IMG/VR virus record: IMGVR_UViG_2671180849_000011
Source of the DNA: a virus
Lineage: Duplodnaviria; Heunggongvirae; Uroviricota; Caudoviricetes
DNA: 13,205 bases
Strand: one strand, 5' to 3'
The notes under the pieces are model-generated. The model was given only the letters and a program-made list of their open reading frames with translations. It was not told where the DNA came from and made no database searches. Positions 1 through 13,205 of this stretch are shown piece by piece (the stretch's first letter is position 1; each line of letters begins with the position of its first letter). Both the position numbers and the translations under genes were made by a program.

Positions 1-88
1 CCCCCTGGGCACCGGACCCGCCTCAAAGGTCGGATCATCACAATTGGCGGGGCGATTTTATAGTCGCTTTAAGGTTTATAGACCGGAG

Positions 89-118
89 TTGACTTACCTT
101 CCGGCAACCTGCTAACAT
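89..118 (+). promoter_or_regulatory. candidate sigma70 promoter (TTGACT - 18 bp - TAACAT)
   Basis: -35 TTGACT at 89-94, 18-bp spacer, -10 TAACAT at 113-118; a 10-bp inverted repeat CCTGCTAACA (108-117) / TGTTAGCAGG (142-151) overlaps the -10 and could be an operator. Confidence 0.4.
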
Positions 119-124
119 TAGTCT

Positions 125-215
125 CGCGAGAGGTTGATTTTTGTTAGCAGGTTTTGCCCCGCATCAAAAGGATACCGGAGAAGAGCCCCTTTGTTAACAC
201 TTAGGGGCTTTTTTC
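125..215 (+). ncRNA. candidate small RNA of about 90 nt (promoter-to-terminator unit with no ORF)
   Basis: Predicted start about 125 after the -10; no ATG/GTG-initiated ORF before the terminator; 5' end GCGAGAGGTTGATTT (126-140) is antisense to leader elements at 8510-8527 and 9052-9069 of - strand mRNAs. Confidence 0.3.
184..215 (+). terminator. rho-independent terminator
   Basis: Stem AGCCCCT (184-190) / AGGGGCT (203-209), 12-nt loop, then T-run 209-214; sits just beyond the stop (266-268) of the convergent 708-aa gene. Confidence 0.6.
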
Positions 216-265
216 TTGCCTGGAGTTTATCCGGTCAGGCTAACTTATTGATTTAGATCACAATA

Positions 266-2392
266 TTAGAAAAGCTGGTTAGATTCCTGTGTGGCTTTCC
301 AATCCAACTGATCGCTGACTTCCTTCTGGATCACCCTGGCAATTCCACCCTCATCGATGGTTATCTCCCATTTGCCGGAAATCTCACCTTGTGGAACTAC
401 ATTAACCTGAGCAGGTTGATAGCCACCATTCTGAATAGCCGTACCAGTGCTAGGAGTAGGACGTGACGGGCTAATTGTTGGATATGGATTAAAGGAAGCT
501 CCTTTGCTGATGTAGCTATGGTTATAGGCCCCTGGCTTGGTCATAGCATCCTGCTCATCACTGAGAAGGCCTTTAGATTTAGCCCACTCCCCGAACTGAT
601 CAGCCTTGCTTTGCATCCATCCTCTGAACTTCTCACCTACCGTCTTAGCGCCAAGTGCGCCAGCGACACCAACACCCACACCTGCGGCACTGCCAGCGGC
701 TAATGCTGTTGTTGGGCTTCCAGCGACTGCCCCGCCAGCACCCTTAACGAGATTGCCCAGACCTGGAATCTTGCCTATCAGAGAAATCAGTTGGGTGACA
801 AGTGAAACAAATCCGGTTAGAGGGGAAAGCAGTGTAGTAATAACTTTCAGACCAGCTAAGCCGACTACCAATTTTCCGATAAGCTCGCCAACCTCTGATC
901 CGGTCATGCCGAACTCTTTAGCCTTGACCTCGATATATCCCTTAGCAAAGCCTACCCAATACATGATCTCCCGCATGGCAGCTCCGACTGCCTCACCAAA
1001 CTGTTTTGCCGCGCTCCCGCTGCCGTCCATATCAGTGGTGAGGTCTTCGAAGATGGAGATCAGAGATTCAGATAAGCTAATAACGCCATCTGCAGGATCC
1101 ACAACACCCATAAATTGAATCGCCAGCTCGTTAAAGCTGTTTTTCATGCGCTGCATTGCTACTTCTGGCTGTTTCATGGATTCAGCAAAAGCTTTAGTTT
1201 CTTTTGCAGCACCCCATATTTTCACCAAAGAAGGAAGTAGCTTGTCCAGGGTGATTTTGCCATCTTTAAGGGCTTTATCGAATTCCTGGGCATTCTTGAT
1301 GATTCCGGCATCAATAGCGGCCTGTTGGAAGTCCTGTTGTGAGCCTGCAAAGGCTTCTGACAGTTGGCCCCGCAGCTCTTCAGCCATAACTTTTCCCTTT
1401 GAAGCCATTTGTTGGACCGCAACAAGCGCCCTGTTCTGTTGCTCACCAGTAGCACCCACTGAGCGGCCTTTAATAGCCATAGCCTCAAAGAGAGCCTGCT
1501 TATCAGATTCCTTCATGGTGGGGGTAGCTGCAGCAAAGCGCATGTAGCCCCCTTGCATCTCCCGCTCATCCATCCCATAGGTGTAGGCTGTGTTCTTGAT
1601 AAAAGCCATCTGCTGATCAGTCTTGGCTTTATCATCCTTGTTCTGTGCCATCAAACCGAAGTAGGCACTGTTGCGATCTGCAAGGCTACCCATAGCACCA
1701 CTAACAGCACGCTGAACACCCCAGCCAGCGGCAGTAAGGCCAATGGCTATCTTGCCTAGTGTGGAGTTGATTTTGCCCAGGTTGTCATGCACCTTGCTGG
1801 CACCTGATGCCAGTTTATCCAGTCTGCTCTGAAATTTTCCGGCCTCTACTGTTGCCATCTTCATTTCAGATCTGAGCCGGGCCATTTTCTGATTATAGGT
1901 CTGCAGGTTAATAGCCCCTTTAGCATAATCAGCATTAACTCTCTGGATTCTGGATTGGAACTGAGCAACCAGGGAGCCATCAAACATGCTGCTGATTCGT
2001 GCACTGTTGGCCCCTACACGGGCCTTTCTGTGCTGAACATCTCCAACACTACGATCTAACAGTTTTTGTTGTCTGGCGGCCTCTCTGGCTTGCTGCTGAT
2101 AGAACTTGCGCATAGAGGAGAGCTCCGGATTATTGCCCCCGGTCAGACGGCTAACAGCCTGAGCACGTTGTTTCTTCTGTGCTCTGGCGATCTGCTCTTC
2201 CACCTTAGCGCGTGTTCTTTGTGTTCTGAGCACAGCCTGATTAGATTTAAAATCAGCTTTAGCTATATCGTCGGTAGCTTTCTTCCAGGATTTTTTATAA
2301 TCCTCAAGCCGTTTAACTTCTTTTCGCCAGCTGGATTTATCAGAATCCCAGTAAATAACGTTTGTTAGTCTGGCGATTTCCTTCATTGCCAT
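266..2392 (-). CDS. tail tape-measure-like protein (708 aa)
   Basis: Long ORF; N-terminal Q/R/A/K-rich predicted coiled coil; central segment (ALVAVQQMASKGKVMAEELRGQLSEAFAGS...) that I read as tape-measure-like; Gly/Ala/Val-rich hydrophobic stretch typical of tape measure proteins; RBS GGCGAGGTG before ATG at 2392; translationally coupled to the upstream gene. Confidence 0.55.
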   Translation of the reverse strand: MAMKEIARLTNVIYWDSDKSSWRKEVKRLEDYKKSWKKATDDIAKADFKSNQAVLRTQRTRAKVEEQIARAQKKQRAQAVSRLTGGNNPELSSMRKFYQQQAREAARQQKLLDRSVGDVQHRKARVGANSARISSMFDGSLVAQFQSRIQRVNADYAKGAINLQTYNQKMARLRSEMKMATVEAGKFQSRLDKLASGASKVHDNLGKINSTLGKIAIGLTAAGWGVQRAVSGAMGSLADRNSAYFGLMAQNKDDKAKTDQQMAFIKNTAYTYGMDEREMQGGYMRFAAATPTMKESDKQALFEAMAIKGRSVGATGEQQNRALVAVQQMASKGKVMAEELRGQLSEAFAGSQQDFQQAAIDAGIIKNAQEFDKALKDGKITLDKLLPSLVKIWGAAKETKAFAESMKQPEVAMQRMKNSFNELAIQFMGVVDPADGVISLSESLISIFEDLTTDMDGSGSAAKQFGEAVGAAMREIMYWVGFAKGYIEVKAKEFGMTGSEVGELIGKLVVGLAGLKVITTLLSPLTGFVSLVTQLISLIGKIPGLGNLVKGAGGAVAGSPTTALAAGSAAGVGVGVAGALGAKTVGEKFRGWMQSKADQFGEWAKSKGLLSDEQDAMTKPGAYNHSYISKGASFNPYPTISPSRPTPSTGTAIQNGGYQPAQVNVVPQGEISGKWEITIDEGGIARVIQKEVSDQLDWKATQESNQLF

Positions 2393-2395
2393 CTC

Positions 2396-2581
2396 TTACA
2401 CCTCGCCCTGTCTTAAAGATTTTGATAATGAAATAGCTCTTTTCAGGGCCTCTTTATCAATATTATATTTCTCCGCAAGCTCTTCGATTGAGAGGTCACC
2501 AGAGGAAGAAGCCCCGCCCTTAATGACGGGAGCATTGTTATCACTTTTTAATTTTTGATAAATCTTTTCGTAGGTATTCAT
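2396..2581 (-). CDS. hypothetical small protein (61 aa) with helix-turn-helix-like segment
   Basis: ATG at 2581 one nt after stop of the upstream gene (TGA-T-ATG); its stop TAA 2396-2398 lies 3 nt before the tape-measure ATG; segment LSIEELAEKYNIDKEALKRAI looks HTH-like. Confidence 0.45.
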   Translation of the reverse strand: MNTYEKIYQKLKSDNNAPVIKGGASSSGDLSIEELAEKYNIDKEALKRAISLSKSLRQGEV

Positions 2582-2582
2582 A

Positions 2583-2966
2583 TCATTTGCCTTTGCGTCT
2601 TAGTGGACACTTATCGCCAATAGTCCACACAAAAATATAATGGCGCTTGCTTTCAGCTTTAGGATTTAATAATTCTTTATGCAAATATCCGGCTGACAGC
2701 ATTTGATCGACCAGGTTTTTCACTCTTTGCCCTTCCTCAAACGTTTGTGTTTTGAAATAGAGATTTGGAAAGTTTTGGCCTGTATATTTTCCATCTTCAT
2801 ATAAGCGGGTGCATACCCAGCGACATAAATCATCATCGTTAAAATCACTAACGTGTGGTTTATCCTCACTGCTAAATAACGCCTGTTTAAAACGGGAGTA
2901 TTTAAACTCCCCATCTTCCAGGAAATCACCCTCATCGAATTCAACTATCATTTCTTCAATATTCAT
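2583..2966 (-). CDS. hypothetical acidic protein (127 aa from second ATG; 129 aa if ATG 2972)
   Basis: ORF in track; SD AAGGA is 7 nt before ATG at 2966; D/E-rich N-terminal half; occupies the position where tail assembly chaperones usually sit but no slippery heptamer seen. Confidence 0.5.
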   Translation of the reverse strand: MNIEEMIVEFDEGDFLEDGEFKYSRFKQALFSSEDKPHVSDFNDDDLCRWVCTRLYEDGKYTGQNFPNLYFKTQTFEEGQRVKNLVDQMLSAGYLHKELLNPKAESKRHYIFVWTIGDKCPLRRKGK

Positions 2967-3010
2967 AGGCATATCCTTTTAGATAAACATGAAAAGTAAG
3001 ATAAATAAAG

Positions 3011-3033
3011 GCACCCCCATTTTTTGAGGGTGC
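3011..3033 (-). terminator. intrinsic terminator-like hairpin (bidirectional context)
   Basis: Stem GCACCC (3011-3016) / GGGTGC (3028-3033) with T-rich loop; U-rich tail on the - strand (CTTTATTTAT, complement of 3001-3010) directly after the stop of the 147-aa gene at 3041. Confidence 0.4.
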
Positions 3034-3040
3034 TTATTAA

Positions 3041-3484
3041 TCATTCAAGATTTACCAGTTTGAGAGGCTTCACCGCCTGCAGCATGGCCTGCATCATTCC
3101 TACGCTTATTTCGAAGAGGTCTGCCATGTTTTGAAGGCTGGCACCTTCTGCCTCGATCATTGATTTGGAGAGCGCCGCGATCACGAATCCATCTTTGGCG
3201 TTATCCCACATGCTGATAAGAGGATCCTCACCGTGCTGGCGCATAAGGTCCTGAATCATCCACAGGCGCATTGCCATAACCACCAAATCGACATAAAAAA
3301 CATCACCATTGGCGGACTTGCATTCAGCAAAAGCGTGGTGTCTGTGTTTTAAGAAGTGCTCTTTGTCACGGGTAAATGCCAGGGTGTTGGTAAACTTGCC
3401 ATCTAAAAGATCCTGGCGAACTTTTGAATCTTCAGCGTCGATAGCTTTGATAACCTGGGATAATAATTTAGCGATTTGAGACAT
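3041..3484 (-). CDS. hypothetical protein (147 aa; track ORF extends to 3514)
   Basis: SD AAGGA 7 nt before internal ATG at 3484 (MSQIAKLL...); predicted helical protein with no recognisable motif. Confidence 0.5.
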   Translation of the reverse strand: MSQIAKLLSQVIKAIDAEDSKVRQDLLDGKFTNTLAFTRDKEHFLKHRHHAFAECKSANGDVFYVDLVVMAMRLWMIQDLMRQHGEDPLISMWDNAKDGFVIAALSKSMIEAEGASLQNMADLFEISVGMMQAMLQAVKPLKLVNLE

Positions 3485-3572
3485 TTGGAATTCCTTAAAA
3501 TTTATATGAGCCATCCGGCATATTTACCGGACGGCAGAATCAATAACTTGCGGCATATGTGAAGGCTATAAG

Positions 3573-4058
3573 CTATTTGCGCTGCATTGCTTTCCGGACT
3601 TTATTGCTGTGGCGGCGGTAGATGAATATAAATTCGCGATAAGCACGACTACCGGGCTTAGGCAAACGTTGATTAAGCTCCTTACGTGGCAGGAGGTCGC
3701 TCAACAAGCCCCAGACATGAAAGCAGGTTACTTTTAATTCTTTTGCTATCTCTTCAATATTCATCCCGCAATTCCACATTAAAAGAGATTTGCGGCGGCG
3801 ATCTTCGAAGACATTTCTATCTCTATCTATTTCGTTATAGACACTGAGGGGAACTCGACACCGTGGATTCCAGGATTCTTCATATAGTTTTTGGACTTTC
3901 TCAAGTTTAACGCCTGTATATTCCGCCACGAATTCAGGGGTAAAGCCCTCGACTAATAAGTGTTTGGCCTGTCGTGTTGGTTGATCATCACTGGGGAGAT
4001 ATTTCTGCAGTGCTACCAGTTTTTCAAATTGGGAATCAGAAAGATCAGATTTGAACAT
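3573..4058 (-). CDS. hypothetical DNA-binding protein (161 aa) with two HTH-like segments
   Basis: ATG 4058 preceded by GGAG at 8-nt spacing; segments FTPEFVAEYTGVKLEKVQKL and GMNIEEIAKELKVTCFHVWGLL resemble HTH motifs; basic C-terminus. Confidence 0.5.
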   Translation of the reverse strand: MFKSDLSDSQFEKLVALQKYLPSDDQPTRQAKHLLVEGFTPEFVAEYTGVKLEKVQKLYEESWNPRCRVPLSVYNEIDRDRNVFEDRRRKSLLMWNCGMNIEEIAKELKVTCFHVWGLLSDLLPRKELNQRLPKPGSRAYREFIFIYRRHSNKVRKAMQRK

Positions 4059-4334: not shown

Positions 4335-5231
4335 TTATTTAAACTCTAAAATGCCTTTTTTATTTTTTCTAACATTTCTCCACAATATTTCGGGATAATC
4401 TCCGCAGGTTTTATCTAACAATATTTCGAATCCCATCCCAATAAGCTTATTTGCAAAAATAAAAACAGGTCTGGTTAAATGCCAGTATTCTTCCGGTTTC
4501 CAGATTTCACCCTCTATTTTCCCTTTATGTTGGCTTACCTCTTCTGCGGTGTAAAAATCCTCCTGAATCTTTGACAAAAGGATCGGGCGACGTTTGTTTA
4601 AATCTTTGTATTTGCTTTCCCACAGTGATCGCATTATGCCTTTAGCCTCACTCTCACCCAGGACAATCCAGCCCCCATCGGTTACATCTTTCACAGGACG
4701 GCCCCGGCGTGGCTTGTCACTAACAGCGTTAATTTGAGGCGCTTTAGTGTCTTGGGTAGGCAATTGCACCACCTTAGCCTTTTTAGCTTGCTGTGTGGCT
4801 TGTTTTGGGGCTTCTTGCGGGTGTTTCTCTTCACTACCTGCATTGCTCATAGGTTGTATTCCTTGAGCGTCACACATTTTGCAGATTTGAGAAGGAGTAA
4901 TTAACAGTTTGTAATGATTAGATTTGCCTTTACTTTTAATTACTGAAATAAGCCCGGCATTTTCCAGAGTTTTGATAGATTCAATGATTTTTCTATCACT
5001 CACACCACATATTTTTGCTAAGGTCTGCTCTGAGATAAATATTTCTTGCCCGTTTAAATGAAAACCTGCCATTTTTCCATAGATTGTTACCTCTATCAGG
5101 TCTAAATTAAATCGCTCTTTTGTTTTTCCAGTCTTTTTATTAGCAATTGTTGTTGCTACTGGTTTATCAAAAGTATACTGAATGAGGCGTTCGAAATGGG
5201 GATTAAAAACCTCCCCGTAATTACTTGCCAT
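4335..5231 (-). CDS. winged-helix DNA-binding protein (298 aa), replication-initiator-like or antirepressor-like
   Basis: ATG at 5231 preceded by GGGGGA; N-terminal wHTH-like segment ISEQTLAKICGVSDRKIIESIKTLENAGLISV; central P/Q/K/A-rich linker with KPRRGRPVK (AT-hook-like); architecture recalls lambda O-type initiators (from memory, unverified). Confidence 0.5.
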   Translation of the reverse strand: MASNYGEVFNPHFERLIQYTFDKPVATTIANKKTGKTKERFNLDLIEVTIYGKMAGFHLNGQEIFISEQTLAKICGVSDRKIIESIKTLENAGLISVIKSKGKSNHYKLLITPSQICKMCDAQGIQPMSNAGSEEKHPQEAPKQATQQAKKAKVVQLPTQDTKAPQINAVSDKPRRGRPVKDVTDGGWIVLGESEAKGIMRSLWESKYKDLNKRRPILLSKIQEDFYTAEEVSQHKGKIEGEIWKPEEYWHLTRPVFIFANKLIGMGFEILLDKTCGDYPEILWRNVRKNKKGILEFK

Positions 5232-5244
5232 AGTTCCCCCACAG

Positions 5245-5460
5245 TTATTTATTAATGTTGTTGGTGTATTTAGCCAGCTCACGCTCAAGGCGGAGACGAT
5301 TCAGTTCTAAAATTGCCGCTTCAATGTGTGGATATTCTCCTTTGTGTTTACGAATAAATGCATAAACGGAAGTTTTTCGAAAGTTACCTTTAAGCACGTT
5401 CTCGACGATTTCGTCAGTAGTCCAGTTTACCAGCTGGCTTATCGGTCCGGTTTTAGCCAT
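5245..5460 (-). CDS. hypothetical small protein (71 aa)
   Basis: ATG 5460 preceded by SD AGGAGA at 7-nt spacing; stop 13 nt before the next start; basic, possibly DNA-binding. Confidence 0.5.
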   Translation of the reverse strand: MAKTGPISQLVNWTTDEIVENVLKGNFRKTSVYAFIRKHKGEYPHIEAAILELNRLRLERELAKYTNNINK

Positions 5461-5592
5461 GATTCAATCTCCTGTTAGCTCACTAACCTGTGCGATATAT
5501 GGTTAAAAAGAAACGGGAACTTAAGACAAGCCCCCGCATTTTTGTTTAAGGAAATTCACTATGATGAGAATTACCCTATGATTTATATTTTA

Positions 5593-5742
5593 TCAGCTAT
5601 TTGCGAGATTGTCAACAATCTTTTTGTATTTATCTATCATTTTTTCTTCAAGGTTGTCGATTGCAGCTACTCCGGCTATGTAGGCAACACCGCACCACAG
5701 TACAGCCAGGTTGATGATCGCTATAGCGTCGCTCAGTTCCAC
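5593..5742 (-). CDS. small single-pass membrane protein (49 aa, GTG start), not in ORF track
   Basis: GTG 5742 preceded by GGAGG at 5-nt spacing; translation VELSDAIAIINLAVLWCGVAYIAGVAAIDNLEEKMIDKYKKIVDNLANS is one hydrophobic helix plus charged tail; stop TGA 5593-5595. Confidence 0.3.
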   Translation of the reverse strand: MELSDAIAIINLAVLWCGVAYIAGVAAIDNLEEKMIDKYKKIVDNLANS

Positions 5743-5786
5743 GTTGACCTCCGGATCTGTTTCTCCCACTATCTATAATCTTATCA

Positions 5787-5808
5787 TATTGACAACCAAT
5801 TGTCAATA
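5787..5808. promoter_or_regulatory. palindromic operator overlapping candidate leftward promoter
   Basis: Perfect inverted repeat TTGACAA (5789-5795) - CCAA - TTGTCAA (5800-5806), arms extend to 9 bp; on the - strand TTGACA, 17-bp spacer, TAAGAT; a third half-site TTGTCAAT at 5929-5936. Confidence 0.4.
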
Positions 5809-6424
5809 GGAATCATTATCATTTAGGCGAGCTATAGGTACAAACAAGTCCACAGCAAAGGGGTAAGCATTATTAATGGCCCCTACCGTGTCAAAACCAA
5901 AGTCACTTATAGCATTTATGCAATAAGATTGTCAATGGCCCACAAGGGAGGGAGAGCACTTTTTGCCTTAAGCGCTCTAAAATCGATTCTAACGCGATTT
6001 AGAGGTCAGGTAATGCAATTGCACTACTCACACAAGTTAATGCAGCCAGAAGGCCATTTAGGGGCCTTATTTTCGATTTCTGAGCGTCCTGTTACGTGTG
6101 TGCATACACGGGCGCGCGGAATCCCTCGCTTAAACGGTCCGGATTGGAAACAGAAGTCTCTTATCCGGACTCCACATTATATAGCTACGTGCTATCGCAC
6201 TACGCTACCCACACACAGGCCGACGTAGTCGGTTTAGCTGTATAGCTAAAGTCACAGAGTGACCCACACACAGATTGCCTAAAGAGTCGCTAATGCTCTT
6301 TAGGCTTTCATTTGTGGGTTAAGCTTTTCCCTTAGAAAACCTTCCCCACTCTCTGATCCCTCCCCATTCCCCTTGGGGGGTTAGGGGGGGATCTGTTGTG
6401 TGATCTATTAATTTATCTATTAGA

Positions 6425-6645
6425 GTGAGAAATTTTCAGGGGTACTAGTGAGAAATCTTCGGTAGTAGTGGTGAGAAATTCTCAGGGGTGTGGGTAGGTA
6501 TGGTGGTTAAGTAGTGAGAAATCTTCAGTAGTTAGAGGCTGTGTATCATGGGGGCAATGACTGCAAAACGGGAAAGCATGACTGTATAAACACACAGGTG
6601 TGAAAATTCTTCACAGGTTAGCGACACCGGAAAAATCTTCAGTAG
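6425..6645. repeat. iteron-like direct repeats, six copies of about 18 bp (consensus GTGAGAAATCTTCAG(G/T)(G/A)G)
   Basis: Copies at 6425-6442, 6448-6465, 6471-6488 (exact 23-bp phasing), 6514-6531, 6598-6617 (degenerate), 6630-6645; preceded by G-run GGGGGGTTAGGGGGGG 6375-6390. Confidence 0.6.
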
Positions 6646-6655
6646 TGTCTATCTG

Positions 6656-6753
6656 CATATGTGGGAAATACACCCTTATTGACCTATTTTGACTAGCAAA
6701 CCTCTCTCTTCTCTCTTTGCTCTGATTTCCTCTCATGTGTGGGAAATATGCAT
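6656..6753. repeat. second repeat family CAT(A/G)TGTGGGAAATA (two copies) flanking a CT-rich tract
   Basis: catatgtgggaaata at 6656-6670 and catgtgtgggaaata at 6734-6748; pyrimidine-rich tract 6701-6734; a related copy aaaatgtgggatata near 7047-7061. Confidence 0.45.
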
Positions 6754-7488
6754 ACCAACACCCGTTGATTTTATCAATAGCTATGTTGACCGGGCATCAT
6801 AAGTGTGGCCCCTGAGGCAGTCCATCCTTCCCTCACACAGGACAATGAATATATAAAGAACATGAAAGACTGTTCACACCAACACGCCGATAAATTGCCT
6901 GAAGAGGCTTACATGGGGTTATTGTTGTGTGGGTAATGGTGATCATGCTAACAGATTATGTTAATCAGATGTAAATTCCGATTTTGTGGTCTGCATGGAG
7001 CAAACTATACTGGTTAAATGATCAGGGGAATGACTACAAAACAATCAAAAATGTGGGATATAGCCATCTACACGTCTAATGTGCTGTGTGGGGTGTTAGT
7101 GCATGCTTACATGTAAGTCATTGATTTGAAGGGTTGGGAAAATTGCATTTAACATAATAGATCTTATCTACACTAATAAAGCGAACTACAAAATCTGATT
7201 TAAAAATCATGATCAGTGGGCACAGAATTTACGTACAGCCACCTGAATAAATAATGTGCACAACATACAGCAAAGCTTAAGAATTAACATAATAGCAACG
7301 TGGTCAGTAGTGGTGTGATATTTGAGAATTGTTAGAAGAAAAAAGGGAGGTGGGGGAGCGCCTGCCTGGCACCTCAGACGAGTTACCCATAAGCTCAAAT
7401 ACCGCTAATGGATATTTCTGACACCCACACCCAAGACCGCTTTCAGCACATAGCCATATAGCCACACAGGACCGCACAGGATGCAATT

Positions 7489-7698
7489 GTGATAACAAAA
7501 AATGGGGGTGTAATAGGGTAGGTCACCTTTCATCAAAATCACTTCTACGACGTTTCCAGAGTGATAACAAGAAAACAGGCCTCTAAGATTATCTGTGCCT
7601 CGTTTTTAGCTTTTTGTGTGGTTACCAGGTGAAGAGGAAATGTTAAAAACTGTTCATTTTATGCACAAACTAGTCAGGGTGATACCACAAAATGAGGT
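7489..7698. repeat. third repeat family GTGATA(A/C)CA-A-rich-GG, three copies
   Basis: gtgataacaaaaaatggggg 7489-7508, gtgataacaagaaaacagg 7561-7579, gtgataccacaaaatgagg 7679-7697; DnaA-box-like TTATGCACA at 7659-7667. Confidence 0.45.
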
Positions 7699-7887
7699 GT
7701 AAGAAATCCAGCTGCAGATAATCTTGCAGCCAGATTTTGCAGTTTTTTAGGGTATGTTAAATTTGACAAAAATAGAGAAAAGGCTTATTAAGCTAACTTA
7801 TTGATTTTATTAGTATTACGAAAAAGGGTTACACCCTCTCTCTTACTCTGTCAACCGGGCGGTTGTGGCATAAAACGGATTAAATCA

Positions 7888-7946
7888 ATAAATAGGCATT
7901 AAATAGGGGATAAATAGGGGTTAATTGAGGGATAAATAAAAAGGGG
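7888..7946. repeat. five tandem 11-bp phased repeats (A/T)TAAAT(A/T)GGGG
   Basis: Units start at 7888, 7899, 7910, 7921, 7932 (exact 11-bp period); last unit merges into the terminator stem. Confidence 0.55.
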
Positions 7947-7967: not shown

Positions 7968-8498
7968 TCAGAACAGTTTTTTGCTTTTTCTCCAACTAAC
8001 GCCGCGTTTGCCTATGCTCAGCCAGCCGCCAGCGAATCGGGTACCTGCGGTAACACTAGCTCCCCTGGTACCTACATGTGCATAAATACCTGCTCCACTG
8101 CTACCACCGCTTCTACGGCTTTTTCCGCCATCGATATCAAGGAGAACACAGATCGCATTCCACCAAAAGCCGATCACCCATATTGCAAATGCTAAGCCTA
8201 AAACGCCCCAGGTGACCGCCCACCCTTCCAGACTAGTGGGGAAGTAGAAAGCATTGAGAACAGCATTTATAGGGCGGATCAGGAGAAAATCTATAAAACC
8301 AGTATCCACATGAAACGGTCCATTGCCGAACTTGCTACTGCCAATAAATAAGGTAGCAGGGTAAAAGAAGATAGCCATTGCCCAAGGGCCAATAAGCAGG
8401 ATAGTAGCCCCGAACTGTGCGGCCTCCTTAAAGAACATTTTTACTATTGCTTTAAAAAGCTTTTTGTTTTCTGATTCTTTATCTTTCTGAAATAACAT
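7968..8498 (-). CDS. polytopic membrane protein (176 aa) with Gly/Ser/Arg-rich C-terminal tail
   Basis: ATG 8498 preceded by AAGGGG; about four hydrophobic segments; own terminator; position and type fit a superinfection-exclusion or abortive-infection moron (inference). Confidence 0.6.
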   Translation of the reverse strand: MLFQKDKESENKKLFKAIVKMFFKEAAQFGATILLIGPWAMAIFFYPATLFIGSSKFGNGPFHVDTGFIDFLLIRPINAVLNAFYFPTSLEGWAVTWGVLGLAFAIWVIGFWWNAICVLLDIDGGKSRRSGGSSGAGIYAHVGTRGASVTAGTRFAGGWLSIGKRGVSWRKSKKLF

Positions 8499-8509
8499 GA
8501 CGGTACCCC

Positions 8510-8527
8510 TTTGCGAGAAGTTGAATT
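8510..8527 (-). promoter_or_regulatory. conserved leader element copy 1, 12 nt upstream of ATG 8498
   Basis: + strand TTTGCGAGAAGTTGA (8510-8524) identical to 9052-9066 at the same distance from a start codon; 13/15 match to 126-140. Confidence 0.5.
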
Positions 8528-8555
8528 TAGTTAATAACCTGTTGGACTGTTCCTA

Positions 8556-8816
8556 CTATTTATTCTTCTTAAATCTCCCATCCTCCTTTCTCTCGATATT
8601 GTGGTAGTCGGCATAGGCTTTCAGCCTTCTGTGCACGGTGGCGATCCCCACACCGAAGGTTTTAGCGATAACCTGTCGTGGTGTTCCCTCTTCAACCATC
8701 TTGTACATCTGTTCCGCTACATCCATTTGTGCGGCTATCTCCATTTGCTTTGCCTTAGCTTTAATTTCAGCTATCAGCTCTTCCCTCAGTCTCCTGATAT
8801 CTTTAGCCCCCGTCAT
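8556..8816 (-). CDS. small HTH DNA-binding regulator (86 aa)
   Basis: SD GAGGAG 3 nt before ATG 8816; N-terminal predicted coiled coil; C-terminal HTH TPRQVIAKTFGVGIATVHRRLK of the resolvase/Mor-like type (by eye). Confidence 0.6.
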   Translation of the reverse strand: MTGAKDIRRLREELIAEIKAKAKQMEIAAQMDVAEQMYKMVEEGTPRQVIAKTFGVGIATVHRRLKAYADYHNIERKEDGRFKKNK

Positions 8817-8839
8817 AAACTCCTCTCAATGCTGTTCAT
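8813..8839 (-). CDS. 8-codon upstream micro-ORF (MNSIERSL) overlapping the HTH gene start
   Basis: ATG 8839 preceded by GCGGAG; stop TGA 8813-8815 overlaps ATG 8816 (ATGA); lies in an 18-bp direct repeat that duplicates the SD-start region. Confidence 0.2.
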   Translation of the reverse strand: MNSIERSL

Positions 8840-8916
8840 AAACTCCGCTCAATCATGATTAGTAGAACATCCAGGATAGCCAGACCTATTAAAAATGCTT
8901 TGCCTCCTTTGCCCAT
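8836..8916 (-). CDS. 26-aa hydrophobic micro-ORF (MGKGGKAFLIGLAILDVLLIMIERSL)
   Basis: ATG 8916 preceded by GGAGG at 6-nt spacing, 1 nt after stop of the upstream micro-ORF; stop TGA 8836-8838 overlaps ATG of the 8-codon uORF (ATGA). Confidence 0.25.
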   Translation of the reverse strand: MGKGGKAFLIGLAILDVLLIMIERSL

Positions 8917-8917
8917 C

Positions 8918-9040
8918 TCACACCTCCACACACAGAGCTAACATCAGGGCTAACACTCCAACCACCTCAATTGCCTTAACAATGTGTGGGTGATGAAACC
9001 TGGCCTTTTGCCATGCGCTGGCACTGTTCTTGATACCCAT
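8918..9040 (-). CDS. 40-aa micro-ORF with C-terminal hydrophobic helix (track ORF extends to 9145)
   Basis: Internal ATG 9040 preceded by SD AAGGTGA at 5-nt spacing and by leader element copy 2; ATG 9145 has no SD and the N-terminal extension is low-complexity. Confidence 0.3.
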   Translation of the reverse strand: MGIKNSASAWQKARFHHPHIVKAIEVVGVLALMLALCVEV

Positions 9041-9051
9041 AACTATCACCT

Positions 9052-9069
9052 TTTGCGAGAAGTTGATTT
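9052..9069 (-). promoter_or_regulatory. conserved leader element copy 2, 12 nt upstream of ATG 9040
   Basis: + strand TTTGCGAGAAGTTGA (9052-9066) identical to 8510-8524; GCGAGAAGTTGATTT (9055-9069) is 14/15 identical to 126-140. Confidence 0.5.
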
Positions 9070-9336
9070 GTTTGTTCGGTTGGGGTGCTATCAATGATCC
9101 CCTTCCTTGATTCGAACTATAGCCGGGTAAATCACTGGAAAACATTGATATTGATCAAAAGATATCTATCACGAATGAAAAAGTTATGATAGATGATAGG
9201 AGTCGCATAGCTGCGACCTTGGCTGTGTGCCAAGCCTGCAAAGCAGGTCAGGGATGAGGTGACGTATTGATGGGATTGATAGAGGTCTGAAAATACCGTT
9301 ACCACGCTAATTATTAGAATTTATATAATCAGGATG

Positions 9337-9365
9337 TTGACAATGTGAGTAAATACTGATATAAT
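9337..9365 (+). promoter_or_regulatory. perfect-consensus sigma70 promoter (TTGACA - 17 bp - TATAAT) with AT-rich upstream region
   Basis: TTGACA 9337-9342, exactly 17-bp spacer, TATAAT 9360-9365; AT-rich 9305-9335 (UP-element-like); faces the capsid genes. Confidence 0.65.
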
Positions 9366-9373
9366 ATACAGTA
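9354..9373. promoter_or_regulatory. LexA-type SOS box overlapping the -10 element
   Basis: TACTGATATAATATACAGTA matches the E. coli-type consensus TACTG(TA)5CAGTA at all ten flanking positions with an AT-only core. Confidence 0.45.
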
Positions 9374-9508
9374 TACCGTGAATCATTTAGCGAAGGTGGT
9401 TTACCGTATTTTCCTCCAAAGTAACGGCGACCAGGTAGCGGTGCCGCCTTATAAATAACACTACCCTGATCATCGTTGAGTGGTCGATTAATTCTCCTAT
9501 TGGGCTAG

Positions 9509-9517
9509 TTATCCACA
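9509..9517 (+). promoter_or_regulatory. consensus DnaA box TTATCCACA inside the capsid-operon leader
   Basis: Exact 9-mer; also the 5' arm of an inverted repeat CCACACAG (9513-9520) / CTGTGTGG (9539-9546). Confidence 0.3.
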
Positions 9518-9845
9518 CAGTTTTCTTTTGCGGGTTTTCTGTGTGGGTAGCTATCCCGAAAGGTATTTCCCCGCTGATGTGACCGCAGCCTGAACTGATT
9601 CGGGGGAGTGCCTTTCGTGATAGTGCTCTCTAGCAACCGTAACCATGCAGTGAACTATCAGCCAACTGTTGTTGGTTTTCCCCATATGGAATAGCCCCCG
9701 CTTGGACGGTGCGGGGCTATCTCCCTCTCCTTATATCAATCCCCCTTTAGATTTCCGGCATAACTTTTCGGCCCGAGCCTGTCGTGGTTTGAGAGGTTAT
9801 ACCTGAACCCTTTGAGGGGAGTTAATTTAAATCGCAGGTGATCAA

Positions 9846-10181
9846 ATGAGAGATATGACTATCCGCACACGCGGACACATCATTTCATACGCCGCAGATG
9901 AGCAATTTAGTATTCGCGACGTTGAAGTTAAAAACAAAGTTAAGACTGAGATTCCGGCTGGCACTGTTGTTGTGGTGACTGAGGCTGGCGAGGTTGAGAC
10001 CTTCGTTAAAGCAACGCACACCGGTAAAACTCCGCTGCTGGTTGTAGAACGTGCTGAAGTTGGTGATTCCTTTATCGTTGTTGCGAACAAAGGTTGCTAC
10101 ATCAATCCGGCCTATGTGGACAAAGACGGCTTAGCCGCTGTTGTTGCTGCCAGCAATGGCGATTTGCGTGTTGCACAATAA
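9846..10181 (+). CDS. head decoration-like protein (111 aa), assignment by position
   Basis: ATG 9846 preceded by AGGTGA at 5-nt spacing; strongly biased high-expression-type codons; immediately upstream of the capsid gene, as gpD is in lambda; no sequence similarity to lambda gpD recognised. Confidence 0.5.
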   Translation: MRDMTIRTRGHIISYAADEQFSIRDVEVKNKVKTEIPAGTVVVVTEAGEVETFVKATHTGKTPLLVVERAEVGDSFIVVANKGCYINPAYVDKDGLAAVVAASNGDLRVAQ

Positions 10182-10192
10182 GGAGGTTGAAA

Positions 10193-11239
10193 ATGGCTAA
10201 GAAAGAATTCGAAGTTCGCGATCTGTGTGGTCTGATTAAAGATATCCCGCCGGATAACATGATTATTTCTGCAATGGATATCTTCAACACTACTGCTCTG
10301 TGCAATACCTTTAAATTTGAATATGACAAAGTTCGCCAGGTGAAACAAACCGCTTTCGGTCAGTATCCGCGCTACGGTGAACAGATGGCTACCATTACCG
10401 CAGATGAGCGTGAAACGGGCACGGGTGATATGGCATTCACTGCCGCATCAAGTGCTATTTATCCTTCTGACTGGCAGGGTATCCGCGTTCCTGGCAAAGA
10501 TTCCGAAGAGAATCTAGAGTCTGTAACCGCTCGTCGTGTTATTCAGCTGGGCGAAGGCTTACGCCAGACCCACGAAGAAGCACGCCAGCTTGCTCTCTTT
10601 GAGAACAAAATTATCCTCACCAAGGGTAAAGAACTGAATGTGTGCGAACTGCTGGGCGCACAGCAAACCACTTCAGAAGTGGATCTAACTCAAGATATCC
10701 TTAAACAGCTGCAGGACCTGGTTGCACTGAGCAAGGTTAAACAGCGTGGTGTCGTTCGTGCCCTGCGTGGTTTCACCCTGTTCTGCCGTGCTGAACTGTT
10801 TACCGCTATTCAGACTGATGAACTGCTCCGTAAAGTGCTGTTGTTCGGCAATCAGAACATTACCGACAAAGGTCTGATGTTCCCTGAGGATATTCTGCCG
10901 GGCTTCCCGACCTTCCGCATTCCGGGCTTAGCCCTGCGTGTGGTGCAAATGGATAGTCTGCCAGAGAATACTGCTTATCTGGTCCCACAGTTCCAGCCGC
11001 ATGCGTTAGGCGATATGGTGGGCGTTTATACTCAATTTTTCGGCCCTTGCGCTCGCAACCTGAAGCTGGCAAACGGCGCTGCACGTGAAGCTTTCATGTA
11101 TATGGAAGAGTCCAGAGGCAAACGCGAAATCTTCGTTGAATCCTCTTATGCTTTCATGAACATGATGCCTGAAGTTGTGGTTAAAGTGAGTGTTAAAAAC
11201 ACCGCCGCCGCTGCTCTGGCAAAAGCCAAGGCTAAATAA
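10193..11239 (+). CDS. major capsid protein, lambda gpE-like family (348 aa)
   Basis: ATG 10193 preceded by AAGGAGG at 6-nt spacing (track ORF starts at an upstream TTG); strong codon bias; collinear matches to lambda gpE as I recall it (FKF near N-terminus, LPENT versus LPDNT, C-terminal V-S-V); size fits. Confidence 0.6.
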   Translation: MAKKEFEVRDLCGLIKDIPPDNMIISAMDIFNTTALCNTFKFEYDKVRQVKQTAFGQYPRYGEQMATITADERETGTGDMAFTAASSAIYPSDWQGIRVPGKDSEENLESVTARRVIQLGEGLRQTHEEARQLALFENKIILTKGKELNVCELLGAQQTTSEVDLTQDILKQLQDLVALSKVKQRGVVRALRGFTLFCRAELFTAIQTDELLRKVLLFGNQNITDKGLMFPEDILPGFPTFRIPGLALRVVQMDSLPENTAYLVPQFQPHALGDMVGVYTQFFGPCARNLKLANGAAREAFMYMEESRGKREIFVESSYAFMNMMPEVVVKVSVKNTAAAALAKAKAK

Positions 11240-11296: not shown

Positions 11297-11328
11297 TATC
11301 CCCGTCTTAAGTTTTTGAGGTGTCTTTT

Positions 11329-11580
11329 ATGAAAATTGTTTTATACGGCGACCGTGACGACGTGCCTTTTGATATTATCCATATCGATGACGAGGATCTG
11401 CCGGAATTCCTGCGTATCTCCACATTTGCCGCCTGCTATGACGTTAGCCGCCAGGCTATGCATAAATACCGTGAATATAATAAATGCACCTGGGCCGAGA
11501 CTTTCGAACATTTTATTGCACGCAAACAAGCCCAGGACCGCAAAAAAGCCCTGAATGCGCATAATCGTTTTGCAAAATAA
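11329..11580 (+). CDS. hypothetical small protein (83 aa)
   Basis: ATG 11329 preceded by GAGGTG at 6-nt spacing (track ORF starts at GTG 11320); acidic N-terminus, basic C-terminus. Confidence 0.5.
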   Translation: MKIVLYGDRDDVPFDIIHIDDEDLPEFLRISTFAACYDVSRQAMHKYREYNKCTWAETFEHFIARKQAQDRKKALNAHNRFAK

Positions 11581-11654
11581 CGATAGATAGCCCTGTCTTT
11601 TTATCAGAATTCACACAGGGCCACCAAAAGATTCAATTTGGAGGCATGTTTAAT

Positions 11655-12458
11655 ATGGCTAGTGATGCTCTGACAGCTGCAAAACAAGCTGAGTCGAGAT
11701 CTCCTGCATTCACTGTTATGTGTGGGGGATATTCACAAAACAAAAATATAATGGATGGCTTCAACTATACCGATAATGTGGCTATCTTCTTTGACTCTAT
11801 CTCTGATGTCAGCTATTCGTTCCCTGTTGAGAAATCGAGCTATGCGGTCGAGGATGGCACCACCATGTCAGACCATGCCGTCATTAAAGATAAATCTGTC
11901 AGCTTTACGGGTATTATTACCTCTTCCCCTCACATTATCCGGAAAGAGAACTACATCGACCGGAACACTGATCCAGATAATCCCCGTGAATCTATGCGCC
12001 CTGCTGCCGCTGTTCAGGCACTTATGGAAATGAGAGACAAGCGCCAGCTAGTTAGCCTGGTAAGTGAAGATGCCGGACTCCTTGAGAACTTCATCATGAC
12101 GAAATGTGAAGTTAAGCGTAGCTCTTCCTCTGGCGACTGCATCACTATTGATTGCACTTTTGAAGAATTCCGCACCTTCAAGGTGAAGATGGTCGAAAAT
12201 GCCGGAGTTTTCACTAACAGTAAGAAGGTGAATAAAACACAGCAAAAGGGTGCTGTTAACAGTGCTAAAGAGGGTAGTAACGCTGGCAATGCTGCTACGA
12301 AATCTACCAGAGCTAAGCATCGCGGGGAATATGCACAGGGAGAGGCAGCGGGAAAGATTGCCGCAGGTGATAAGTCTGTCGTGTCGAATGAGTTCCACGA
12401 AACGATGATTGATAAGGCCAACATGTTGCTTGATGACATCACGGAGATCAACAAATGA
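11655..12458 (+). CDS. hypothetical protein (267 aa; 270 aa if ATG 11646)
   Basis: GGAGG 11640-11644 is 1 nt from ATG 11646 but 10 nt from ATG 11655; Ser/Thr-rich; stop overlaps next start (ATGA). Confidence 0.55.
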   Translation: MASDALTAAKQAESRSPAFTVMCGGYSQNKNIMDGFNYTDNVAIFFDSISDVSYSFPVEKSSYAVEDGTTMSDHAVIKDKSVSFTGIITSSPHIIRKENYIDRNTDPDNPRESMRPAAAVQALMEMRDKRQLVSLVSEDAGLLENFIMTKCEVKRSSSSGDCITIDCTFEEFRTFKVKMVENAGVFTNSKKVNKTQQKGAVNSAKEGSNAGNAATKSTRAKHRGEYAQGEAAGKIAAGDKSVVSNEFHETMIDKANMLLDDITEINK

Positions 12459-12913
12459 GTCCGAAAGTCCGTTGCACCATAGACAAGCGCATGATGGATA
12501 AGCTGCATAAAGAGCTCTCACAGATGGAAGGTGTAGCGGTTGGCTGGGATGACGGGAAACACTATAGCGGCCTGAATTACGCCACACTGGCAGCAATTCA
12601 TTCTGAGGGGTGGGGTGATCTGCCTAAGCGCTCCTTTATGGAATCTGCCCACGCAGCAATGCTCTATGAGAGCCTGAGACACACAAAAGCCCTGATTAAT
12701 GCAATCGTAAAGGGTGGGAGCTCTGAGGCCGTCAGGAAGCGAATAGGCAAGCGATACGCCGACATTCTGGAGACTATCCTGATTAGTGGGCAATTCAGCA
12801 ACAACAAGGTTTCCCCACAATGGGCAAGCTATAAAGGCTTCAATGATGCCATGCGCCACTATGATGATTTGATCGGTGCAATCAAATACTGGTCAAATGT
12901 GGGGAGAGGTTGA
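12455..12913 (+). CDS. hypothetical protein (152 aa), translationally coupled
   Basis: ATG 12455 overlaps upstream stop (ATGA); GGAG 8 nt upstream; no recognisable motif. Confidence 0.55.
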   Translation: MSPKVRCTIDKRMMDKLHKELSQMEGVAVGWDDGKHYSGLNYATLAAIHSEGWGDLPKRSFMESAHAAMLYESLRHTKALINAIVKGGSSEAVRKRIGKRYADILETILISGQFSNNKVSPQWASYKGFNDAMRHYDDLIGAIKYWSNVGRG

Positions 12914-12929: not shown

Positions 12930-13005
12930 TCTTTTGAGGCCGTAGTGAGGCTAATCACGGTCCGGCTTAAAAAAGACAATAGGATGTCTTTTGAGGCCGT
13001 AGTGA
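12930..13005. repeat. two copies of a 19-bp direct repeat TCTTTTGAGGCCGTAGTGA
   Basis: Exact copies at 12930-12948 and 12987-13005 (57-bp spacing), similarity extends upstream (AATAG..); 17 nt after stop of the 152-aa gene. Confidence 0.5.
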
Positions 13006-13205
13006 TACACCACAAATCAGCCCCTTTCCACTTCTTTTCTCGCGATTGGTCCCTTGTGAGAATCCTTTATCAGGTATGCATTGTCCCGTGCATGAGCGGT
13101 CGATAGAGCCAGCCTCTTTCCCGGACTGGTTAGGATTTAGTGCGCTGAGAGAGCGCCGCTATCACTGTTAGCCTGTTTATCGTTGCCTGGTTTGTGCATC
13201 ACTGC

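Follow-up and report, generated by a model that had tools for sequence, protein, structure and literature searches.

Known phage satellites remodel or replace the head of their helper phage and take its tails unchanged. Those with small T=4 heads include P4 (11.6 kb) and the SaPIs (~15 kb). P4, the satellite of P2, can exist as a plasmid and contains a copy of the helper packaging site; it encodes no capsid or tail structural proteins, only Sid (size determination) and Psu, together with an integrase and a primase-helicase. The cf-PICIs are integrated elements which encode an integrase, their own major capsid protein, portal, protease, adaptor and small terminase, and which obtain complete tails from the helper. 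PLE of Vibrio cholerae, the satellite of ICP1, parasitises a virulent myophage, is resident in the cell before infection and has its own replication initiator; it is integrated and uses the helper capsid protein, remodelled by TcaP. We know of no PLE that encodes a tape measure protein (TMP). The satellite-plasmids PISP and cf-PISP of Vibrio crassostreae, which measure 11-16 kb, have been reported only within Vibrio and without tail genes, and they carry parA, a terminase or small terminase and a protease (PMC13230959). Here we describe a stretch of 13,205 nucleotides (IMG/VR record IMGVR_UViG_2671180849_000011; the whole stretch is hereafter called the window) which was found to be a circular plasmid of Escherichia coli carrying a TMP gene. 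We consider it fairly probable that this plasmid is a satellite of rV5-like virulent myophages which brings its own tail ruler.

The plasmid and PISP/cf-PISP are both small, circular and extrachromosomal, with their own replication genes, a capsid gene, no integrase and a partial set of phage genes, and spread in hijacked phage particles is proposed for both. The PISP capsid is of the lambda E type (PF03864), and PF03864 was also found in the capsid homolog of a second E. coli plasmid lineage described below. The plasmid differs from PISP/cf-PISP in possessing a TMP, a tail tube initiator and a neck-like gene, in having no detectable parA, terminase or protease gene and in its host genus; judged by gene content it would fall outside the definition of PISP/cf-PISP while sharing the idea of their lifestyle. 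As in cf-PICIs, the major capsid protein is the element's own and the rest of the particle is proposed to come from the helper, but the present element is a plasmid in which capsid and decoration genes are the only head genes and tail-core genes are added, which places it outside the definition of a cf-PICI. The likeness to PLE lies in the proposed parasitism of a virulent myophage by an element resident before infection and in the replication initiator, and there is no sequence relationship between the two. P4 is similar in size and in its capacity for plasmid life, and its copy of a helper packaging site has a candidate counterpart in the present plasmid. The gene content is that of neither a PLE nor a P4-like element. 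In the literature, of which the subscription part was not covered, no description was found of these plasmids, of their proteins, of satellites of Vequintavirinae or of satellites encoding a TMP.

The closest described proteins are the TMPs of Vequintavirinae. They belong to the same family (PF20155, TIGR02675 and phrog_5255), are collinear with the plasmid TMP and are accompanied by a homologous tube initiator in the same element. The plasmid TMP is 24-30% identical to them and 70-100 residues shorter, and it differs in its setting since it ends a replication operon, with no chaperone genes upstream and no hub or baseplate genes downstream. The gene occupies positions 266-2392 on the minus strand, starts with ATG and encodes 708 residues. 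Its identity, proposed in the initial annotation, is borne out by matches to PF20155 (TMP_3; 51.3 bits against a Pfam cutoff of 41, residues 252-427), to NCBIfam TIGR02675 (34.1 bits, threshold 21.35) and to phrog_5255, 'tail length tape measure protein' (E=4.6e-191). The nearest solved structure by sequence is the TMP of the phiTE virion tail (PDB 9cuy and 9mjn, chain W), where 9cuy_W was matched across residues 104-593 with E=9e-22.

In MAFFT alignments the plasmid TMP aligns end to end with the TMPs of the rV5-like phage MaxTheCat (bas57_0018, 778 aa) and of phiTE (811 aa), and three blocks, of ~70 residues in total, are missing from its N-terminal half relative to MaxTheCat. Common to the plasmid and the rV5-like proteins are a near-identical MRKFYQQQA(R/K)EA sequence, the TMP_3 core, the hydrophobic and Gly/Ala-rich segments and a C-terminal motif. 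The overall profile is typical of TMPs, with a charged, proline-poor N-terminal part (residues 1-200 are basic and contain only one proline) followed toward the C-terminus by a hydrophobic segment (residues 501-546) and a Gly/Ala-rich stretch (residues 562-582). The ratio of non-synonymous to synonymous substitution rates (dN/dS) was 0.12-0.26 in comparisons with seven related plasmids and the gene is therefore kept as a protein. By all of these sequence comparisons the 708-residue reading frame is a genuine full-length tail TMP, to which a position in the tail lumen and the setting of tail length, a putative ruler role, may be ascribed. The gene had been described as short, which holds only in relative terms, with 708 residues against 778 in the rV5-like protein and 811 in that of phiTE. 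The phiTE tail measures ~1020 Å with its TMP of 811 residues (PMC11972413), and scaling by this ratio gives tails of ~890 Å for 708 residues and ~980 Å for the 778 residues of rV5.

The MRKFYQQQA sequence forms an island of near identity at window positions 2078-2113 (residues ~93-105, SMRKFYQQQAREA), with 89% DNA identity to the rV5 and phiTE TMPs, in contrast to ~26% identity in the remainder of the protein. The island is missing from the second plasmid lineage and from the chromosomal islands described below. We speculate that it could be a contact for a helper factor, such as a TMP chaperone, which the plasmid does not have. We also noticed that the TMP is a mosaic within the plasmid family, at window positions 401-800 (residues ~531-664) and at residues ~265-390. 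Plasmids that otherwise resemble one another carry different combinations of two alleles of the segment following the hydrophobic region and two alleles of part of the TMP_3 core, and nucleotide conservation is ~60% in the post-hydrophobic segment against at least 90% in the rest of the gene.

In the canonical arrangement a TMP gene follows two chaperone genes and is itself followed, in the same operon, by distal-tail or hub genes, and neither set of neighbours was found here. The TMP gene is the last of a tightly packed leftward string, in which o129 is separated from o61 by 1 nt, o61 stops 3 nt before the TMP start and a strong hairpin at 185-215 lies ~50 nt past the TMP stop. The gene thus ends its operon, as had been noted at the outset. 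The upstream genes were likewise seen correctly as unlike tube or chaperone genes: comparison of o129 with the rV5/phiTE tail assembly chaperone gave an hhalign probability of 0.4%, and a tail chaperone 5' of the TMP was rejected on this basis. The claim that no other tail genes follow does not hold, since the downstream tail genes are missing only because a circle was read as a line. Across the circular junction lie the neck-like gene (12455-12913) and the tube initiator gene (11646-12458), both standing on a convergent operon and not on that of the TMP. No complete tail module lies just past the window edge, only these two further tail genes. The TMP looks orphaned in a linear reading because it ends the leftward operon and converges on the capsid and tail operon. 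Its context is unusual indeed, and is better put as that of a 13-kb replicon with five virion genes, the TMP among them.

The window was found to be one complete circle of 13.2 kb with ~15 genes. In NZ_CP035869, the circular record of pE275a_13, window positions 12964-13205 are followed by a single base and then by window positions 1-266. A megablast survey of 5426 complete E. coli genomes found the entire window in seven of them, and all nine matching places were on plasmids and none on chromosomes. The matching complete plasmids are 13.2-13.7 kb in size, apart from one 39.6-kb head-to-tail trimer (NZ_CP043822) whose three 13.2-kb units show small differences between copies, and matching plasmids are classed in PLSDB as non-mobilizable. 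More than 100 TMP homologs at 85-97% identity were found in the protein database, nearly all of them on contigs of 13.2-14.2 kb; the exceptions are a few short fragments and one contig of 18.6 kb. That contig (L006) was considered as a larger variant and rejected, as it is an inverted-duplication assembly with no extra cargo. If the trimer record and the inverted duplication are not artefacts of assembly, they are signs of multimers or concatemers. A linear plasmid with fixed ends, which BLAST matches spanning whole records had brought into consideration, was also rejected: circular records start at different points and the junction is contiguous. The size range of the family, the second lineage included, is 13.2-14.7 kb, and gene order is held across hundreds of isolates and in the lineage with 38-58% protein identity.

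Five genes only are of virion type, namely those for the capsid, decoration, tube initiator, neck/tail-completion-like and tape measure proteins. Searches of the window proteins with Pfam, PHROG and NCBIfam found no terminase, portal, protease, scaffold, tube, sheath, baseplate wedge, fibre, lysis, integrase or partition gene. The 13.2-kb replicon does not hold the complete set of virion, packaging and lysis genes that a phage-plasmid or an intact prophage has. A replication module of its own (a Rep-like protein and iterons) beside an incomplete virion gene set is a feature of satellites, and so is the relatedness of the structural genes to a single helper lineage, since the nearest phage relatives of all five head and tail proteins are in Vequintavirinae (rV5-like coliphages and phiTE-like phages).

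Four of the five virion genes form a rightward operon which converges on the TMP gene across the junction. Its order is decoration-like gene, major capsid gene, o86, tube initiator and neck/tail-completion-like gene. The head-decoration-like protein (111 aa; 9846-10181, plus strand) is encoded directly 5' of the capsid gene, the position of the decoration gene in rV5, and gave an hhalign probability of 91.4% (E=9e-7) against the decoration proteins of rV5, phiTE and the chromosomal islands. The major capsid protein (10190-11239, plus strand) has the HK97 fold of the lambda E-like family (phrog_29, E=2.8e-21) and is 24% identical to bas57_0008 of MaxTheCat, with dN/dS of ~0.11. It is followed by o86 (11320-11580, plus strand), a conserved small protein of 86 residues. 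The Dit-like tail tube initiator (11646-12458, plus strand; PF21821, 89.6 bits) is 51% identical to bas57_0019 and matches the phiTE tube initiator, 9cuy_K, with E=1e-34. In phiTE this protein forms a six-fold ring at the tube base, the first ring of the inner hub (PMC11972413). The last gene, for a neck1/tail-completion-like protein of 152 residues (12455-12913, plus strand; phrog_222 'tail completion or Neck1', E=7.9e-29), encodes a protein with 45% identity to bas57_0011 and 49% to phiTE_219. The TMP, in comparison, is 26% identical to bas57_0018. The dN/dS values of the tube initiator and neck-like genes were 0-0.06. All the structural genes are under purifying selection, which contradicts a reading of the element as a degraded prophage.

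A further resemblance to rV5-like phages was observed in DNA outside the genes. Window positions 7316-7340 (TGATATTTGAGAATTGTTAGAAGAA), in an ORF-poor region (open reading frame, ORF), match rV5-like genomes at 24 of 25 positions. This is the sole noncoding match between the plasmid and phage DNA, the other similarity being weak and inside the TMP and tube initiator genes. A search of the window with the phage 24-mer gave a single match (7317-7340, one mismatch), and 200 shuffles gave none. The 24-mer matches ~110 rV5-like records, in unannotated DNA, and those rV5-like records that include the terminal repeats contain two copies, located 27-51 nt from the end. As an example, HdK5 has an exact 459-bp direct repeat at both ends with the motif 26 nt inside the left end, and a terminal redundancy of 458 bp has been reported for this phage (PMC6563267). 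In a phage record that reads through the genome junction, the motif is followed by 26 nt ending in CCGCC and then by TGGCA, and in the plasmid it is followed by 26 nt ending in CTGCC and then by TGGCA. A second GATATTTCTG box follows in plasmid and phage alike, and the phage end is surrounded by four such boxes. In a divergent plasmid (L007) the flanks have drifted, with TGATATTTGAGAATT, AAGAA, the spacing and CTGCCTGGCAC kept. The 14-nt core of the motif is present in a single copy in each plasmid unit and was absent from all 83 unrelated loci. We infer that 7312-7425 (plus strand), which comprises TGATATTTGAGAATTGTTAGAAGAA, the 26 nt, the GCC/TGGCA step and the second GATATTTCTG box, is a candidate copy of the recognition and cutting site of the helper terminase. 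In MaxTheCat (MZ501094, positions 90,051-92,584; 8051-10584 of the extracted locus L005) a stretch of 2.5 kb without annotated genes was observed between convergent gene blocks, and it holds the terminal-repeat region and the four GATATTT(G/C) boxes around the genome end.

The divergent relatives carry the comparison beyond this plasmid. A second lineage of E. coli plasmids (L097/L098, 14.7 kb) has every gene in common with the first at 24-58% protein identity (TMP 38%, capsid 50%, tube initiator 58%). The two layouts are the same: the TMP closes the Rep operon and faces the genes for the neck, tube initiator, o86, capsid and decoration proteins. A scan in which each bacterial species was represented by one genome yielded no close relative outside E. 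coli; it did yield three integrase-bearing chromosomal islands, in Enterobacter nematophilus (L016, 9508-14216), Pectobacterium odoriferum (L017, 3871-12118) and Pseudocitrobacter vendiensis (L018, 1549-15215). Each of them has integrase genes together with genes for a capsid protein, a decoration-like protein and a full-length TMP that belongs to the PHROG of the plasmid TMP, with 23-25% identity to that protein and 24-27% to the TMP of rV5. The pairing of TMP and capsid in the second lineage and in the islands is therefore old and recurrent, and not the accident of one plasmid. In the Enterobacter and Pectobacterium islands, a small ORF just 5' of the TMP holds a stretch of 30 residues (IKEKGIALCHKAQGYSANNRPVSLLMK) which is a near-copy of the N-terminus of the rV5 head scaffold, with 57-73% identity. 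This ORF has the appearance of a means to disrupt the assembly of helper heads; the motif was searched for in the plasmid and not found. It is conceivable, and we hold it only tentatively, that these elements are the first of a class of satellites that encode the core of the helper tail (ruler, tube initiator and tail-completion protein) besides their own capsid; in E. coli they would live as multicopy plasmids and in other Enterobacterales as integrated islands, with strictly virulent ~137-kb rV5-like myophages as helpers.

Homology and end-to-end collinearity with phage proteins, purifying selection, the circular form of the plasmid, its gene content, its conserved architecture and the match to the phage terminus were all observed directly, and we infer a satellite lifestyle, an rV5-like helper, packaging at the matched site and a TMP acting as the ruler in satellite-directed tails. 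On this proposal an rV5-like phage would infect a plasmid-bearing cell and its terminase would recognise the plasmid copy of the genome-end sequence, packaging unit-length plasmid DNA of ~13-14 kb from the copied end. Small heads would be built from the plasmid's own capsid and decoration proteins, while the plasmid TMP and tube initiator would nucleate tails on the helper hub. Helper tube and sheath would then polymerise along the plasmid TMP with the use of helper chaperones, and the tail-completion-like protein would finish the head-proximal end. Tails seeded in this manner would be ~9% shorter than those of the helper (708 against 778 residues at the phiTE ratio), or by roughly two tube rings. 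The narrow family range of 13.2-14.7 kb fits a constraint from capsid size or from site-to-site packaging, and these sizes resemble the genome sizes of the T=4-headed satellites. Possible reasons for owning a ruler are the seizing of tail initiation, interference with the helper or a need in DNA delivery.

Several observations weigh against the satellite reading. A capsid protein only 24% identical to that of the helper would need to assemble on helper parts. No gene for a small terminase, portal, scaffold or protease could be recognised on the plasmid, and none for a TMP chaperone was found. The genome-end match is short, consisting of 25 nt and spaced short motifs, and neither the second plasmid lineage nor the islands have the rV5-type terminus motif. 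Its absence from L097/L098 suggests a different helper for that lineage, and the islands too may use other helpers. The element is rare and occurs in 0.13% of the complete E. coli genomes. Scans of IMG/VR viral contigs recovered relatives of neither the TMP nor the capsid, one capsid alignment being too divergent to serve as a query, and no DNA-level relatives of either were found among GenBank phages. The neck-like protein is assigned its role from the PHROG label and from its position in the phage neck module. Its AlphaFold model was unusable (mean predicted local distance difference test score, pLDDT, of 49.9 from a 5-sequence alignment), no sequence match to it was found in the PDB even at E<=10, and its phiTE homolog had no match among PDB chains, the phiTE entries included.

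The alternative that survives best is that of a defence plasmid which interferes with assembly. Here the TMP, tube initiator, neck-like and capsid proteins would act mainly as dominant-negative decoys that join rV5-like particles and poison their assembly, to the benefit of the bacterial population, and the plasmid itself would be packaged inefficiently. Identities of 45-51% between the tube initiator and neck-like proteins and their phage versions make co-assembly plausible, phage-like terminal motifs are kept in the TMP and the element was not seen in viral contig collections. Known satellites such as PLE and PICI commonly pair interference with spread (PMC10002752, PMC11364771), and the two roles are not mutually exclusive for this plasmid either. 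Interference by itself leaves three features unexplained, namely the narrow range of plasmid sizes, the divergent pair of capsid and decoration genes and the copy of the phage terminus, and the defence-system models of PADLOC gave no significant match on the plasmid. We regard this explanation as unlikely, although it is the strongest of the competitors.

The TMP might instead be a TMP-domain protein with a role outside the tail, for instance in contacts with the membrane or cell wall, in maintaining the plasmid or in transferring DNA; a role of this kind had been raised when the gene was first described. Such a role would suit a gene that is co-oriented and coupled with replication and regulatory genes and not with tail genes, that has no chaperone pair upstream and whose residues ~531-664 vary as a mosaic between plasmids. 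It would not account for the collinearity with virion TMPs over the full length, both termini included, or for the company the gene keeps: the tube initiator is always alongside the TMP and, in the wider family, a capsid gene is too. Furthermore, no enzymatic or other additional domain was found in the protein with Pfam and NCBIfam profiles. These observations favour a real tail role in a satellite-type element and make a non-tail role improbable. A remnant of a degraded prophage or phage-plasmid, with the TMP left at the edge of a decayed or rearranged tail module as also suggested in the initial annotation, would explain why most head and tail genes are absent and why the gene order is unlike that of the phage module, but it is highly improbable for a self-contained circular replicon with iterons that fills the window, has intact structural genes under purifying selection, is chromosomal in none of its nine matching places and keeps its architecture and size over hundreds of isolates and between lineages of 38-58% protein identity.

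The leftward operon which the TMP closes begins at promoter-like sites and runs through o71, the Rep-like protein, o161, o157, a hairpin, o129 and o61. Two strong sigma-70-like promoter matches at 5587-5806 (minus strand), TTGACA-17-TAAAAT (11/12) and TTGACA-17-TAAGAT (10/12), face it. The first gene is o71 (5245-5460, minus strand), which has a homolog in the Pseudocitrobacter island. The replication-initiator-like winged-helix protein (4335-5288, minus strand) matches PF13730 (31.6 bits, cutoff 25) and phrog_270/186/678, and its true start is probably an internal ATG because annotated relatives have 288-305 residues. Two helix-turn-helix units were found in o161 (3573-4058, minus strand), whose homologs in the second plasmid lineage and in the islands of Enterobacter and Pseudocitrobacter, the only islands that have one, are 28-47% identical to it. 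The AlphaFold2 model of o161 has a pLDDT of 78.7, and a Foldseek search against the PDB found no significant match, the best (E=0.4) being to generic sigma region 4 and KorA-like helix-turn-helix proteins; a small terminase function for o161 is neither supported nor excluded by this comparison of predicted folds.

The next gene, o157 (3041-3514, minus strand), is under purifying selection. Between o157 and o129 lies a terminator-like hairpin (3011-3033, minus strand; GCACCC..GGGTGC followed by a T-rich tail), which may make o129, o61 and the TMP a unit controlled apart from the replication and regulation genes upstream; part of this hairpin was observed to recur in inverted form at 7496-7533. 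The o129 protein (2583-2972, minus strand) is acidic and has no Pfam or PHROG match. The small o61 (2396-2581, minus strand) shows a weak helix-turn-helix signal (UPF0122/GntR-like, below cutoffs) and is translationally coupled to the TMP. Two further genes on the minus strand lie before the rightward operon. The first, o176 (7968-8498), is a predicted membrane protein which varies between plasmids, and the second (8556-8816) encodes an HTH_7 DNA-binding protein (27.5 bits, cutoff 23.8; dN/dS of ~0.05-0.15) which is probably a regulator.

The putative plasmid origin is an iteron array at 6423-6646, with five copies of ~19-21 nt (GTGAGAAATYTTCRG..) at a spacing of mostly 23 bp, in the ORF-poor stretch 5800-7900. 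Distinct from the iterons are four tandem 11-bp repeats (ATAAATAGGGG-like) at 7888-7931, adjoining the end of the o176 gene. The hairpin past the TMP stop (185-215; AGCCCCT..AGGGGCT, flanked by an A-tract and a T-tract) forms a 14-bp stem in the minimum-free-energy fold. It has the better T-run on the plus strand and, with the A-tract on its opposite side, is a potentially bidirectional terminator; it also bears a weak resemblance to a terminator of counter-transcribed RNA (ctRNA). The convergent promoter that had been placed beside it amounts to consensus-level matches only, of 9/12 at 37-64 and 89-118.

An ultra-conserved, ORF-free structured element was found across the circular junction (12987-13205 and 1-230), where it fills the ~450 nt between the neck-like gene and the TMP stop (905-1352 in L001) and ends at this terminator. 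It is 99-100% identical in eight plasmids, one of which has gene dS near 1, and it is the best-conserved DNA (78%) in comparison with the second lineage, whose proteins are only ~50% identical. The fold has a z-score of -4.2 on the plus strand, and RNAalifold across the lineages gave 87 pairs, 13 of them compensatory and none broken, with a similar result for the reverse strand. No tRNA, tmRNA or known RNA was found at the junction with ARAGORN and Rfam, which were also applied to a record in which the region is contiguous. The element may be a structured RNA or a DNA site for multimer resolution, partition or control. Just past the neck-like gene, window positions 12930-12986 form a 57-nt tandem duplication with exactly repeated 19-nt ends (TCTTTTGAGGCCGTAGTGA), and it is missing in the seven other plasmids compared.

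If the satellite reading is correct, tail assembly too would be a target of molecular piracy, and satellites would re-specify the assembly and length of tails and not only the size of capsids. The plasmids would offer a natural system for the acceptance of a foreign ruler by the hub, tube, sheath and chaperones of a helper. They would also add to E. coli a satellite that lives as a plasmid and exploits virulent phages considered for therapy, the rV5-like phages, and so bear on phage resistance and on how phages might spread plasmids that are classed as non-mobilizable. Direct tests are possible: the plasmids are present in sequenced strains, and matching phages are available from public collections such as BASEL.

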